Origin: Lingula anatina | Lineage: Eukaryota; Animalia; Brachiopoda | Reading direction: 5' to 3' | NCBI GenBank assembly: GCA_051362555.1 | Contig: CM120640.1 | Coordinates: forward strand, 24,476,225 to 24,540,224 | DNA length: 64,000 nucleotides | In this document: piece after piece, positions 34,104-41,655 of the stretch | Numbering within the stretch: the stretch's first letter is position 1 | Layout: each line of letters opens with the position of its first letter | The notes under the pieces: model-generated | The model's input: the letters and a program-made list of their open reading frames with translations, nothing else | Database searches by the model: none | Told to the model about the DNA's origin: nothing | Program-made: the position numbers and the translations under genes

Positions 34104-36821
34104 ATGAAGCTTGGCCGAGTGGTTGTCGTGGGCGCTGGTCCCAGTGGATGTTATGCTGCCACCAGACTTGCACAGAGTCAACTGTTTGAGGCAGTACACG
34201 TGTACGAGAAACAGGAGACTGTTAACCCAACTACAGCTATTGGGAGAAACATCAATATTACTCTGTGTAAAAGAGGTGCTAAAAAGTTTTTTTATTCTCC
34301 TGTAATATATTACTACACTGCTACTATTAGATGGTGTGTCATGTGTCACTTTAGTTCAGATTGCACTCCCATTCCAATTGCATATGACCAGATATACAAT
34401 TTATTCACAGTAACCGTGTATGTCCATACTACTGTACATGTGTACCACATGTTAGTGTATACGCATGTACCACAAGTACTTCAGGTGCCAGGGAAATGCA
34501 TGCATTTTTGAAATTTTTTGAAAGATTCGTTTTTAAGATCTTAAATTTTTTCAATGACAAAACTTTGGAGTTTTTCTCTTTATACCAGTTGTATATAAAA
34601 TTGTCTTCTGATTAATATTTCCTGAGGGATGCCAAGTGCATCTCCTTCTTCTGCCAGTGCTGGACTCTTTTTTCTGGCTCGCAGAGTCAAGCTACTATAC
34701 ATGGTGTTACATGCAAACCACCTATATTGGGTTATTTTGCTCTAGTACATGTGCTCCTGTGCTTATAGATGTATTCTTGTGCATGTACAGTGTATGTACT
34801 GTACCTGATGGTCAGTTGTACACTGTAGATCACATAAGTGTAACAGTAACCCAACGGTACAAAAGGTTAAATGATCCAAAGCAATGTGTAATTAATTAGT
34901 TTTTTTTAATTGAATTAATTGTGAATCTGATCATGACTTTATTTTACAATAAGATGTAAATGAAATACTATTTAGAATTTGTGATCTCTTTGCTATGTGC
35001 ACTCCTGAGTCAATTGTGATGTTGGATGAATACCAGTTTATCAGTACAAGTTTTTTTTTTTCTTTACAGGAATTGATGCTTTGAAAATACTAGGTAACAT
35101 GCCTTCTGCAGAACTCCCAGCAGCTAGTTTGAAACACTTCTCCATTCACACCAATCAAGGCACATTTCAACATGCATATGGAGGTGAAGGCCTTTTGTCA
35201 GTGAAAAGAAATGATTTGTACCAGTACCTAAAAATGAAAGCTGAAACAGCAGGTGCAATTTTTCATTTTGGCCATACTTTGGAGTTGGTATCCCCAGCAA
35301 AGGAAAATGGCAGCAGTCTCACTATTTTTTATGATAAAAATGGTCACACCATTTCAGAGCCTGCAGCATTGGTGATAGGGGCAGATGGTGTTCATTCATC
35401 AACAAGAAAATTTTTGTTTGAGAAAATTGTGTCAACAAAATATAGATCTTGTGATTCACTGCAAGTTGACAGCCAACAGCACCCAGGATCCTGCATTATC
35501 CAAGAACACCCTCTTGGATACAGAGAAATCACCATACCTGCTGATGTCCTGTCACGCTATAGTCATAGTCTGCCACAAGATACCTTTCACATATGGGGAA
35601 GCCAAGAGTTTGTTGTATTGGGTCTGCCATCACCTGATGGGACTATGACATTAGGAATATATATGAAGAAGGAACAGCTGCTTGTAAAATCCATGAAGGA
35701 TATTGTAAAGGCCATGCAGTCCAACTTTTCAGATTTGAAGGACTTGCTGTCAGAAATCCCAGACTTACATGTATGTATGCTAGTGATTGTGTGGGGTTTA
35801 CCCATTCAAATTACTTGACTGAATATAATATTTAAGTTAGTTAAAACTTGTTTTGATATTTATTCTGCACAGATTTTACATTTATTTTCAATATTTTATC
35901 GTAATGAGATGCATTTTTCTCTGAATGTTGTTTATTGACTCATTTTTTGTCAAATAAAACCACAAGATTTTTTAAAAGTTATGAGTATCTTTATATTTAT
36001 TTGACAGAGTTCAGGGCGGGTTGGAAGTTTGACTACAGTGTCATCAGCATTCTATAGTTTAGGAAACATTGCTCTTATTGGAGATGCTGCTCATGCCATG
36101 CTGCCATTCCTGGGTCAGGGACTGAACTCTGGTTTGGAAGATGTCTGCATTCTCCTGGATGCTCTGAAGAGTAGTCAAACACCACTTGGTATACATGTTG
36201 GTGGCTCTGTACATACTGCACCTGTACTTTCATTCTCTAGATTTATGTATCTTTTTCTTCTGTGGATTTTAAAGCTGGGGTAGCGCTAGCAATTTTTTTC
36301 ACTTAGCCAAATCACCACTTTTTTGTCAATTTGTTATCCAAATGGTTATAATTTGACTAAAACAAGTCAAATCAAGCCTTTTTTGTTTAGCCAATTTATG
36401 TCAGTTTTAGCATTTGACTAAATTGGCGAGTGTTAGTGCTACCCCAGTAAAGATTACCAGGTTAACACATGTATGTAATACTGGTGGTATTATATTGTAT
36501 TTGGCAAGTTGTTTTATTCTGCTGTATTTGCATTTCTATTTTTATTTGCGATCAATTTTATTTTTGGTCTAGGTCTTTCTAGTGATACCTTGTTAAGAAT
36601 ACTTGAAGACTTCTCAACAAAGCGCAAGAAAGATGTGGATATCATATTAGCAGAGAGTCTGGCAGAATATGAAAAATGGCGTACTCTTAGTTCGGTTGAC
36701 TTGAGCCATGGATTTCAATATCAAATCCAAATGAGTAGTTTCTTTGAAAAAATTAGCTCCAGCACAGTGAGTTATTCGGAGGCATGGAGAATGACAAAAG
36801 AAGAATCTCCTCCTGTTAAAG
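34104..36821 (+). CDS. Exons 1-4: FAD-dependent monooxygenase module, kynurenine 3-monooxygenase-like (group A flavoprotein)
   Basis: [10 protein letters not shown] (GxGxxG); [16 protein letters not shown] (KMO GRSINLALSxRG); VIGADGVHS (DG motif); [35 protein letters not shown] (GD motif). Confidence 0.93.
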
Positions 36822-37622
36822 GTAGGTAAAACGGTAATGTGTAATCCCACAGAAGTCGTGATTGGTATTCTATTACACTGTTTGTTTGCCTGTGTGTGTT
36901 AGTTCTTTGTTTACTGTTGTTTTTCATCCATTCAATTATATTTATATTATTTATATACTAAGACTTAAAGTATATGCATGAATATATCCATTCACTTATG
37001 TATATGTTTGCTATTATTTTCTAATATTCATTGATGTGAATATTTAAAGGAAAATTAGAAACTATTTTGGATCCTGGCCTGTTTTCAATTAATAAAATGA
37101 TCATTGGTTGTTATAGTCAATTATGTTCGATTTAAACTTTGTGTGGGTGCCCTTAATGATTTTTTACATCTTTCCCTGTTGAGATTTTAAAGAACAAATT
37201 CATTGTTTTAGGGATTGGTGAATATGTTCACAAAGGAGAGACATTAGCAGTGTATGAGGCTGTGAAAACTGTGATTGCCATACGCTCCCCATGTGATGGT
37301 ATGATCAGTGACATAAGTTTTGGACCTGCTGGTGAGCCCGTATACAAAGTCAAGACTATAGATTCTGAAAAAGATCCAGGTGTGTCACCGCCAGTCATCC
37401 AGTCATCTGTAAGGGTAGAACAAGATTTGTCCCCCAATTCTACAAGCGATAGGTAAAAGTATTGTTGCACCCTTTACATTATATAGTACATCGTGTGTTT
37501 ACATTGATGAATTAACAATTGCAATATAGTTACCGGTATATGAACGTTATTATAGTATAGTTTATGTACTACTAACAAGTATTTCATTTCTCTAAAAACA
37601 AGCAGTTTAAATTAAGGTCAAT

Positions 37623-37705
<83 letters not shown>

Positions 37706-40091: not shown

Positions 40092-40163
<72 letters not shown>

Positions 40164-41655
40164 GTACTGTTGGGACATTGCATATACTCATCTGCTGTTA
40201 CATTTTGTGGACAGCAAAGAAGACTGTGGTTCTGAATGGCCAGAATGATCAGAATGATTATTTTGTTTAAGACATTATTTTCTCCAGCAATCATAGAGCC
40301 CTTTTGAAAAAAAAAAACAATCTGCAGCATTGTTATTCCGTGATTGTTAAAGCCCAGAGACGATGGAGACATGCATGTGAGAACAAAATATTTAATATGA
40401 TTTTGAAAAACATATATTGATTAGATTTTCCTCTAGTCAACTTTTATTTTTTAGGCAAATGGAGAGAATCCTGTGCTCTGTTTGCTGTTGGAGGAGGCTA
40501 CGATATGGGCTACATAAATGCCTTGCAGGAGGATGGCCTGCTGATGATAAAGGAGTATGTACACAGTGGTGGAGCATACCTAGGCATATGTGCCGGTGCC
40601 TACCTGGGCTGCTCAGATATTGAGTTTGACAAAGGCGGACCACTGGAAGTATGTGGCAGAAGGCAGTTAGAGTTCTTTCAAGGTATGATACATGTATATT
40701 GAGCTCATTATGCTCTGTGTAATCTTTGTTTTTAGCAATCCCTATTCTGACCTTCAGAGGCCAGAATGGTCCACCTTCTTAAACCATTTCACCCACTTTA
40801 ACACACACTGACCTTTTCTGGTCCTAATACCATAGGTGTCTTTATATCAGAAATGTGCCATCCATTGCATCCCATCTTCATAATAATCCCTTTGATATCA
40901 GTTGAAAGCCCAAGAAGTCTAAAAAACGGGTATAACAGGCCCCCTTTGATAATGCTACAGTGTAATTCAAAATAACATACTGTAATCCCCTCCCCCCATC
41001 CCCTCATGTATAAATATGTGTTTATATAATGTAGATTTTTCACAAAAATGACACAAATTACTAAGAGTAAAGTCAACTGTATATTTTCAAAACACCAATT
41101 AAATTTTTTGTTAAAAATTGACTTGCTTGCGTGGACTTTCTCTCTTTGTGAAAAAGTATTTTGTTTTAATTGTCTCTTTTTGCTTTACTTTACTCATTCA
41201 TCAAAAAACTCCTTTTTACCTGAATTTTAGGGAAGTGTATTGGTCCAGTGTATCAAGGCTTCCAGTACAACAGTGAGGCAGGGGCACGTGCAGCTTGCAT
41301 TAAACTGCAGGACGATGCCTCTTTTGGCATTCCTTTACGTGAAAAAATGTCAAAAACTTTGACAGCACAGGTCTACTTTAACGGAGGAGGAACATTTATC
41401 CCAGACAAGAAAAACCAAGAAAGTTGTGTTGTAGCCAGGTATGAAGATACCCAAAATGCTGAAGAATCTGCGGCCATTATTAGCTGCAGGGCTGGTGCAG
41501 GAGTGGCTGTTTTGAGTAGCGTCCATTTTGAGTATTTAGTGGAAGATTTGGATTCATCTGATGAGTACCTGAAGACAGTTGTTCCAAAGTTAAGAGAAAC
41601 ATTGCACAGAAGAGATTTTATTTGTAGTAGGATCCTCCAGATTTTGAGGTTGTAA
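34104..41655 (+). CDS. Predicted 11-exon multidomain protein (~1059 aa): KMO-like FAD monooxygenase + lipoyl/biotinyl carrier + biotin protein ligase + C-terminal BPL_N/GATase-like domain
   Basis: Exons: 34104-34275, 35070-35770, 36008-36188, 36573-36821, 37212-37452, 37889-38043, 38426-38553, 39069-39570, 39891-40088, 40455-40682, 41231-41655. Total 3180 nt = 1060 codons with no internal stop. Intron phases 1,0,1,1,2,1,0,1,1,1 match at both ends of every intron. Nine introns are GT-AG and one is GC-AG. Confidence 0.82.
36275..36447. mobile_element. MITE in intron 3
   Basis: TIRs CTGGGGTAGCGCTAGCA / TGTTAGTGCTACCCCAG, with TAAAG duplicated on both flanks. Confidence 0.85.
37212..37452 (+). 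CDS. Exon 5: biotinyl/lipoyl attachment-like domain plus linker
   Basis: The spliced reading [39 protein letters not shown] fits the pattern GxxVxxGxxLxxxExxKxxxxIxSPxxGxI with the acceptor Lys intact. Confidence 0.8.
37626..37701. repeat. (TA)n microsatellite in intron 5
   Basis: Direct reading. Confidence 0.97.
37889..39570 (+). CDS. Exons 6-8: biotin protein ligase catalytic domain (BirA/BPL) and C-terminal subdomain
   Basis: [73 protein letters not shown]. Confidence 0.95.
38765..38998. mobile_element. MITE in intron 7, termini distantly related to family A
   Basis: TTCCCATAAACCCAT...TAGCTGGATAGATCCAACTCTGCA pairs with TGCAGAGTTAAATCAATCCAGCTA...ATGGATTTATGGGAA. Confidence 0.75.
39891..41655 (+). 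CDS. Exons 9-11: BPL_N-type (class I glutamine amidotransferase-like) domain
   Basis: [85 protein letters not shown]. These parallel the N-terminal domain of yeast Bpl1. Confidence 0.92.
40096..40160. repeat. (TA)n microsatellite in intron 9
   Basis: Direct reading; it produces the spurious YIYI ORFs. Confidence 0.97.

Follow-up and report, generated by a model that had tools for sequence, protein, structure and literature searches.

A brachiopod gene encoding a predicted flavin monooxygenase, carrier domain, biotin ligase and BPL_N domain in one polypeptide, and a possible carrier-tethered reaction cycle

Gene structure and transcription

The 64,000-nucleotide stretch of Lingula anatina DNA that was analyzed (assembly GCA_051362555.1, contig CM120640.1, positions 24,476,225 to 24,540,224 of the forward strand; hereafter the window) contains a gene whose predicted product combines a flavin-dependent oxygenase, a biotinyl/lipoyl-type carrier domain, a biotin ligase and a BPL_N domain, i.e., a domain resembling class I glutamine amidotransferases (Table 1). 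The gene is real, expressed and conserved, and its function was inferred. Splice sites were placed by eye in positions 33000-42500 and afterwards verified by script. The spliced exons comprise 3180 nt, corresponding to 1059 aa and a stop codon in a stop-free frame, as anticipated in a preliminary description of the locus (11 exons, ~1059 aa). Introns measured 237-794 nt and showed GT-AG borders in nine cases and GC-AG borders in intron 9. A search with exon 8 retrieved the 1059-aa RefSeq protein XP_013422157.1 of the same brachiopod (99% identity), which is labelled 'uncharacterized'. The window product and this protein are of equal length and differ at 13 of 1059 residues, none of them catalytic. 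Identical length, the restriction of differences to substitutions and the open frame therefore indicated that the second haplotype also keeps the frame.

Transcription was analyzed in four RNA-seq runs of short reads, of which 6-26% per run was read (depth ~0-10x per bin); reads across exon joints were counted among the alignments listed, with those at repeats excluded. At least six of the ten joints were spanned: 36821^37212 (18 reads, 3/4 runs), 37452^37889 (10 reads, 3/4 runs), 39570^39891 and 40682^41231 (21 reads and 4/4 runs each), 36188^36573 (10 reads, 2/4 runs) and 35770^36008 (13 reads, 1/4 runs). Joints 1, 6, 7, and 9 lay outside these alignments and were neither confirmed nor contradicted. 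In the stranded runs X12 and X15, nearly all exon reads placed the first mate on the minus strand, which is the pattern given by plus-strand RNA in a usual stranded library. In runs X18 and X19, 20 reads skipped 36 bases of exon 11 in frame (window 41320-41357) at borders other than GT-AG; the skip probably represents an allele without 12 residues in a variable loop of the BPL_N domain.

An in-frame TAA codon and an AATAAA sequence (37091) in intron 4, together with the four joints outside the listed alignments and the reliance on short reads, could point to two adjacent genes that were merged by the gene model or by rare read-through. Against this explanation stand the reads over 36821^37212 and 37452^37889, the full-length single proteins found in other lineages, one of them from a transcriptome, and the bin beyond the TAA (36844-37147), which includes the AATAAA sequence and had a depth of zero in all four runs. 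Transcripts ending after the TAA at 36829, which the preliminary description had named as a possibility, were thus not seen. Two separate genes were rejected on the joint-spanning reads and the empty intron 4, and the proposal of one gene encoding one protein, with all four modules intact, held.

Elsewhere in the window, a satellite occupies the left part and short dispersed repeats occur in and around the gene (Table 1). Those at ~36270-36450, 38790-38950, and 41800-42020 attracted many partly matching RNA reads, and those at 38790-38950, 41800-42020, and 31800-32000 resemble one family by eye. An open reading frame (ORF) with a DUF6314 match lies upstream, and opposite-strand reads were found at 33500-33803 in both stranded runs. 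This arrangement suggests that the fusion gene and the DUF6314 ORF share an upstream region.

Table 1. Features of the fusion gene, of the surrounding window and of related loci (window positions unless a locus is given).
Feature	Position	Strand	Description
Whole gene	34104..41655	+	11 coding exons, 1059 aa; allele of RefSeq LOC106182074, XP_013422157.1
Exons 1-4	34104-34275, 35070-35770, 36008-36188, 36573-36821	+	
Exons 5-8	37212-37452, 37889-38043, 38426-38553, 39069-39570	+	
Exons 9-11	39891-40088, 40455-40682, 41231-41655	+	
Intron 4	36822..37211	+	390 nt, in-frame TAA 36827-36829; removed in 18 reads
Intron 9	40089..40454	+	GC-AG, start adjoins (AT)n run; joint implied by RefSeq protein
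Oxygenase, putatively KMO-derived	34104..36802	+	Exons 1-4, aa 1-428, group A flavoprotein monooxygenase
Biotinyl/lipoyl-type carrier	36809..37363	+	aa ~431-485, motif EAVKT
Linker	37364..37916	+	aa 486-524, spans intron 5, weakly conserved, low-confidence
Predicted BirA-type ligase with C-terminal cap	37917..39949	+	Exons 6-9, aa 525-796
BPL_N, class I glutamine-amidotransferase-like	39950..41655	+	Exons 9-11, aa 797-1059
Phe81	35138-35140	+	Position of P. fluorescens KMO Arg84
Glu383	36665-36667	+	Position of P. fluorescens KMO Asn369
Phe409	36743-36745	+	Position of P. fluorescens KMO Tyr404
Lys453	37265-37267	+	Carrier lysine
Met579	38461-38463	+	Ligase pocket
Lys649	39186-39188	+	Catalytic lysine of ligase
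Cys888	40589-40591	+	BPL_N triad
His1017	41524-41526	+	BPL_N triad
Glu1019	41530-41532	+	BPL_N triad
DUF6314 ORF	32370-33029	-	E 2.2e-19, divergent from fusion gene
Satellite	1-27081		142-bp units, ~191 copies, 86% matches
Short dispersed repeats	~36270-36450, 38790-38950, 41800-42020, 31800-32000		
BPL_N beside bioY, same strand	L009, L014, L174, L183, L187, L188, L189, L191, L198, L200, L204		
BPL_N-biotinyl domain fusion	L211:1240-2289	-	350 aa, MKM motif; alphaproteobacterial
BPL_N, 438-codon ORF with single biotinyl domain	L012:6533-9710 (= L201)		Opposite-strand birA
Ligase with dead BPL_N	P0002-P0006, P0027, P0031, P0035, P0037, P0049, P0052, P0058, P0064, P0106, P0142		Proteins; named ones molluscan

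Domain layout and distribution of the architecture

Pfam analysis of XP_013422157.1 (P0001) yielded matches to FAD_binding_3 (E 2.6e-16), BPL_LplA_LipB (E 2.7e-11), and BPL_N (aa 801-1058, E 2.6e-66). Biotin_lipoyl, the remaining member of the set that had been expected, matched at aa 435-471 and stayed below its cut-off (E 0.0021). Module borders, which had been placed at introns, do not all lie there: the border between ligase and BPL_N falls inside exon 9 (~39949). Single-sequence structure prediction reached a predicted local distance difference test score (pLDDT) of 31.8 only, while a fold model based on a 70-sequence alignment had a mean pLDDT of 87.5 and a predicted template modelling score (pTM) of 0.69 for the whole protein. 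In this model the folds of kynurenine 3-monooxygenase (KMO) and of the Pyrococcus biotin ligase were recovered for the oxygenase and ligase modules, and residues 488-516 of the linker had pLDDT values below 50, indicating disorder. Among family members, the linker between the oxygenase/carrier half and the ligase half varied from 17 to 91 residues. The whole protein had no usable match in the ESM Atlas.

The order flavin monooxygenase, carrier, ligase, BPL_N was found in nine clusters at 90% identity. These clusters represent Lingula, the nemertean Lineus longissimus (1093 aa, 40% identity over 97%), the ichthyosporeans Sphaeroforma arctica and Creolimax fragrantissima, the thraustochytrid stramenopile Mucochytrium quahogii (a transcriptome record), and four marine metagenome clusters, one with 19 members and one N-terminally cut. 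A metagenome member (P0018) groups with Mucochytrium. Profiles built from the family detected the four-domain order in 18 of 309 stored proteins, a count that is circular for the nine proteins used as builders. The distribution is a lower bound, as the relatives listed were dominated by single-domain matches; a profile search among proteins of similar length, in which the best 7997 candidates were scored, returned only four members that were already known. Members are labelled uncharacterized or hypothetical in databases. The supposition that the architecture had not been described was upheld by a literature search, which found no account of it (subscription papers and supplements were outside its coverage).

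Properties of the individual modules

The oxygenase module retains the GxGxxG, DG and GD motifs, ends with the C-terminal helical domain of KMO, and has flavin adenine dinucleotide (FAD) motifs that are invariant in all eight sequences containing the domain. The family profile matched KMO over positions 3-434 with an E-value of 7.5e-55; the second-best flavoenzyme reached 1.6e-23. KMO was also the top Foldseek match of the model (E 6.5e-30), and VIA comparison with rat KMO (6lkd) gave Z 40.4 and a root-mean-square deviation (rmsd) of 2.6 over 380 residues. Positions of Pseudomonas fluorescens KMO were assigned by counting along the family-profile alignment. Arg84 is replaced by Phe81 (F/V/Y in 8/8 members), Asn369 by Glu383 (E/L/K/Q in 9/9 members, N in none), and Tyr404 by Phe409 (F in 9/9 members). 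On these replacements, orthology to KMO was rejected. The three Pseudomonas residues, which we take to correspond to Arg85, Asn363, and Tyr398 of human KMO, presumably also hold the acid group of kynurenine. According to the accessible part of a docking study, the human residues bind ligand carboxylates (PMC8199213). Pocket residues Thr53, Gly253, and Tyr255 are specific to the family and were invariant in all seven members checked. By these alignments, the oxygenase derives from KMO, has a pocket conserved within the family and lost the acid clamp. Such a loss would be expected if the acid group of the substrate is tied up as an amide; it fits an amide-tethered substrate and also a different free one.

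The carrier begins 12-16 residues after the oxygenase in both animals, and its identity between Lingula and Lineus is 47%, compared with 18% for the adjoining linker. Lys453 is invariant (9/9 aligned members), aligns with the modified lysine of biotinyl domains (best E 0.0011) and of H-proteins (E 0.014), and in the predicted model occupies a hairpin turn between strands 445-450 and 454-459. Four long strands were predicted, and 43-51 residues of the ~73-residue domain were matched. Motifs around the lysine were EAVKT, ESVKT, EMLKT, ELVKT, DAVKT, DSVKT, and EMLKA, i.e., [ED][ASML][VL]K[TA]; the VESVKT sequence of Lineus is identical to that of the H-protein 1onl. Leads for the carrier in the ESM Atlas all scored below 0.9 and were all biotin/lipoyl-like. 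Its shortened form and lack of the MKM motif may restrict the carrier to the ligase of the same protein.

The ligase module passed the TIGR00121 birA_ligase model (108.9 bits; cut-off 83.1), and BirA models scored best. LplA-B_cat was absent from P0001 at E 0.01 and below its cut-off in relatives. On these results, and with no LplA/LipB-type partner found, a lipoate-ligase system was rejected. The module retains the STM (S-T), GRGR, and KWPND motifs, the tryptophan, and catalytic Lys649; Ser555, Lys638, and Lys649 are invariant in nine of nine sequences. VIA comparison of aa 532-796 with Pyrococcus biotin ligase gave Z 28.4 and rmsd 1.8 over 231 residues. In a quick tree, class III (fungal-type) ligases formed a clade of 15 sequences (SH-aLRT 100) that included none of 12 fusion ligases, animal HLCS sequences not being identified in this set. 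Fusion ligases grouped with mollusc, standalone and Chloroflexota ligases (support 90); three changes, one of them forced, were counted on this tree, and the fusion ligases may or may not be monophyletic. Since they fall outside the class III clade, a permuted holocarboxylase synthetase was rejected. The ligase, initially described as a holocarboxylase synthetase, is by its sequence better assigned to a separate BirA-type lineage. One pocket position, near-invariantly Gln in other ligases (45/45 class III ligases and 137/138 ligases at the loci surveyed), is Met579 in Lingula; among 11 fusion ligases, the four holozoan ones have Met and the remaining seven have Gln. We assume that this position corresponds to E. 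coli Gln112, which contacts the ureido ring; a literature search for it found nothing.

The triad Cys888, His1017, and Glu1019 of the BPL_N module was invariant in 9/9 aligned members. It was kept in 10/10 fusion domains, 53/53 class III ligases, 70/75 standalone proteins, and 28/29 ORFs at the loci surveyed. In fungal-type ligases, BPL_N regularly accompanies the catalytic domain; in the present protein the two come in reversed order. The accessible text of a 2025 study reports that the yeast ligase domain has the triad, shows no glutaminase activity in vitro, and leaves its role unexplained (PMC12582158). Of the two outcomes initially proposed for this domain, release or amidation of a product, glutamine-dependent amidation was consequently set back as first choice. 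In the available portions of two further papers, standalone BPL_N of Trichoplax is treated as unrelated to ligation (PMC3641634), and a text on chlamydial bioY refers to 'BPL' and does not mention BPL_N (PMC3459881).

Bacterial gene neighbours tie BPL_N to biotin and to carriers. In a first set of 24 loci (133 of 134 neighbour ORFs scanned), bioY directly preceded BPL_N in two, and a biotinyl-domain gene and birA followed it in one. Matches to BPL_N came from 107 of 150 Chlamydiota and from 22 of 301 Alphaproteobacteria, the latter all with genomes of at most 3.3 Mb. When neighbours were surveyed in these groups (107/110 ORFs scanned), bioY immediately preceded BPL_N in the same orientation at eight of the best 30 chlamydial loci. 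Among 20 alphaproteobacterial loci, one had bioY downstream on the same strand, one (L201, identical to locus L012) a biotinyl-domain gene, and one an ORF in which BPL_N and a biotinyl domain are fused (L211). In the 438-codon ORF of L012, the sequence outside the biotinyl domain was unmatched. Location beside bioY or fusion to a biotinyl domain suggests that BPL_N may be a hydrolase of biotinyl amides. A FAD_binding_3 gene before BPL_N in one of 50 loci (L172) lacked the KMO-type PF.GQG stretch and was taken as chance. BPL_N-like ORFs also occurred in viral contigs (L165, L167-L170), two of which are labelled GVMAG.

Partial relatives were found as well. In molluscs (oysters, Patella, Bulinus, Solemya), a related ligase is followed by a decayed BPL_N domain with the triad in 0/11, and 12/12 have another residue in place of the second Arg of GRGR. 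Change of this Arg in E. coli BirA is, we assume, the basis of promiscuous proximity labelling, and the mollusc-type proteins may represent leaky ligases that arose naturally, or else pseudo-enzymes. Standalone BPL_N proteins of Capitella, Owenia, and Octopus group with the Lingula and Lineus domains (support 96). These proteins and the mollusc ligases may be fission products or broken gene models. In a FastTree phylogeny of BPL_N, no single origin of the fusion domains was resolved. P0114 (1757 aa), in which Nucleotid_trans and BPL_N occur together with a weak match to Uricase, may be a merged model.

Proposed reaction cycle and comparison with known systems

It is proposed, with a probability of about one half, that the four domains carry out a cycle of loading, oxidation and release on biotin or a close analogue. 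The ligase would adenylate this acid with ATP and attach it to Lys453 of its own protein. On this tether the molecule would be oxygenated by the KMO-derived flavoenzyme at the expense of NAD(P)H and O2, and hydrolysis of the amide by the Cys-His-Glu domain, via Cys888, would free the product and reset the carrier. Through the tether, the flavoenzyme would likely gain access to a vitamin present in traces, captured by the ligase with high affinity and driven by ATP. Loading of Lys453 is strongly indicated, whereas action of the flavin on tethered rather than free substrate and release by BPL_N are each held with moderate confidence; sulfur oxygenation of the thiophane ring would be the simplest, if weak, guess for the reaction. 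The invariant catalytic residues, the lost carboxylate-binding residues of KMO and the biotin-linked neighbours of BPL_N lend the assembly-line logic indirect support.

Several observations weigh against this proposal. Why biotin should be oxidized is not obvious in organisms that probably need it from their diet, and Met in place of a near-invariant pocket Gln implies that the ligase may bind something other than plain biotin. The carrier matches only part of the biotinyl domain and lacks its MKM motif, and the motif it has is equally close to the ESVKT of lipoyl H-proteins. Loss of the acid clamp would suit any free substrate except kynurenine. Of the BPL_N loci, 22 of the 30 from Chlamydiota and 17 of the 20 from Alphaproteobacteria had no biotin-related gene as immediate neighbour, and kinship of the bioY-linked chlamydial genomes reduces eleven cases to two or three independent links. 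No oxygenase relative was found within 8 kb of ligase or BPL_N relatives in 170 genome, metagenome and viral loci (4/64 parts of two large collections scanned); with no such prokaryotic operon, no pathway could be named. For the yeast BPL_N domain, which lacked glutaminase activity, the accessible text establishes no function of the triad (PMC12582158).

The same modules could run in the opposite direction, with the ligase capturing damaged biotin (e.g., biotin sulfoxide), the flavin converting it, possibly by reduction, and BPL_N releasing usable biotin. Heterotrophic marine hosts would gain from such salvage, to which the Met of holozoan ligases and the occurrence of BPL_N beside bioY, common in small-genome bacteria, could also relate; however, the flavin domain is nearest to an O2-activating hydroxylase, seven of 11 fusion ligases keep Gln, and we know of no sulfoxide reduction by this subfamily of flavoenzymes. 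Salvage is therefore considered unlikely. As it shares the cycle with oxidative modification and differs in direction, a tethered cycle of either kind on a biotin-like acid is fairly probable. Comparably unlikely is a switch in which a biotin mark, written on the carrier by the ligase and erased by BPL_N, gates an oxygenase acting on free substrate, so that the protein would be a sensor or an enzyme gated by biotin. This would account equally well for the four modules and their conservation, and has a precedent in a dedicated ligase-carrier pair for which, according to the part of the paper available, lipoylation governs the association with a flavin oxidoreductase (PMC4518038). It leaves loss of the acid clamp together with the family-specific Thr53, Gly253, and Tyr255 unexplained by itself, and a single chain holding both a writer and an eraser, each constitutively active, would spend ATP to no purpose.

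The loaded acid might also have no relation to biotin, being, for example, aromatic or similar to lipoate; it would be hydroxylated while on the carrier and then released or transferred as a specialized metabolite. This would agree with the aromatic hydroxylation of KMO ancestors, the H-protein-like carrier motif, the change from Gln to Met in the holozoan pocket and the patchy distribution. With a BirA-type ligase whose S-T, GRGR, Trp, and Lys are intact, and with BPL_N elsewhere tied to biotin genes, such a biosynthetic role is doubtful. An uncoupled fusion, in which the ligase half biotinylates carboxylases, the oxygenase acts separately and the carrier is a relic or decoy, is improbable: one domain order and all catalytic residues are kept across Holozoa and a stramenopile, and loss of the front half in molluscs goes with loss of the triad (kept in 0/11) and of the second GRGR Arg (0/12). 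The disordered linker between the halves, the molluscs that have ligase and dead BPL_N minus the front half, and the annelids and octopus with BPL_N alone would suit it. Merging of two adjacent genes, discussed above, is very improbable.

Covalently bound biotin is known as the CO2 carrier of carboxylases. In the fusion, which occurs in animals and protists, a ligase and a private carrier are combined with an oxygenase and a domain of hydrolase type, implying a use of covalent biotin outside carboxylases. Tentatively, the proteins may form an old, patchily distributed eukaryotic family that uses a biotin-type lysine tether for flavin chemistry, with BPL_N acting as a protein de-biotinylase. 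If true, this would point to an unrecognized biotin-derived metabolite or salvage route and would provide a function for the Cys-His-Glu domain of fungal-type ligases and of standalone BPL_N beside bioY. With writer, carrier and candidate eraser in one soluble chain, the role of the conserved triad becomes directly testable.

KMO (P. fluorescens 5FN0/5Y66, rat 6LKD, yeast 4J34) was the best match of aa 1-428 in both sequence and structure. It ends where the Lingula protein continues into the carrier, and differs from it in having Arg84, Asn369, and Tyr404 and in lacking the Thr53, Gly253, Tyr255 pocket. Class III ligases of the yeast Bpl1 type likewise combine a triad-bearing BPL_N domain with a ligase catalytic domain in one chain; in these, however, BPL_N is N-terminal, whereas in Lingula it follows the ligase, and they act in trans on carboxylases, whereas the fusion has its own carrier and oxygenase. 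Class I BirA-type ligases and the biotin carboxyl carrier protein (BCCP), as in Pyrococcus horikoshii (1WNL/2EJG), share the ligase fold and the alignment of the lysine at a beta-hairpin turn. In contrast to this system, the Lingula carrier is in cis, shortened and devoid of the EAMKM-type motif, Gln is changed to Met in holozoans, and no carboxylase or carboxyltransferase domain is present. The accessible part of a review covers standard biotin ligase chemistry (PMC6594144). From the H-protein/lipoyl system, the ESVK-type motif was matched and the LplA/LipB-type ligase was not, and the Cys-His-Glu triad of BPL_N is common to class I glutamine amidotransferases.

As far as the available text of two papers goes, the LplA2/GcvH-L/SirTM operon likewise pairs a dedicated ligase and a lysine carrier with flavin oxidoreductases, in a function beyond the customary one of the cofactor (PMC4518038; PMC12440151). 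Its flavoproteins, a luciferase-like monooxygenase and an old yellow enzyme, are unrelated to the Lingula oxygenase, and in the text available the system uses lipoate, an LplA-type ligase, separate genes and control by ADP-ribosylation, and has no BPL_N. On the features examined, the Lingula architecture lies outside KMO, class III ligases, BCCP and the lipoate system. Carrier-tethered loading, modification and release, as proposed here, is known from lipoate assembly on H-protein and from non-ribosomal peptide synthetases, where adenylation, carrier, tailoring oxygenase and thioesterase cooperate and the carrier holds a phosphopantetheine thioester rather than a Lys amide. To our knowledge, no biotin ligase, KMO-type oxygenase or BPL_N domain takes part in any of the carrier-tethered pathways. 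What appears to be new is the four-module architecture; its load-modify-release logic is familiar from other carriers, and the chemistry assigned to it here is putative.

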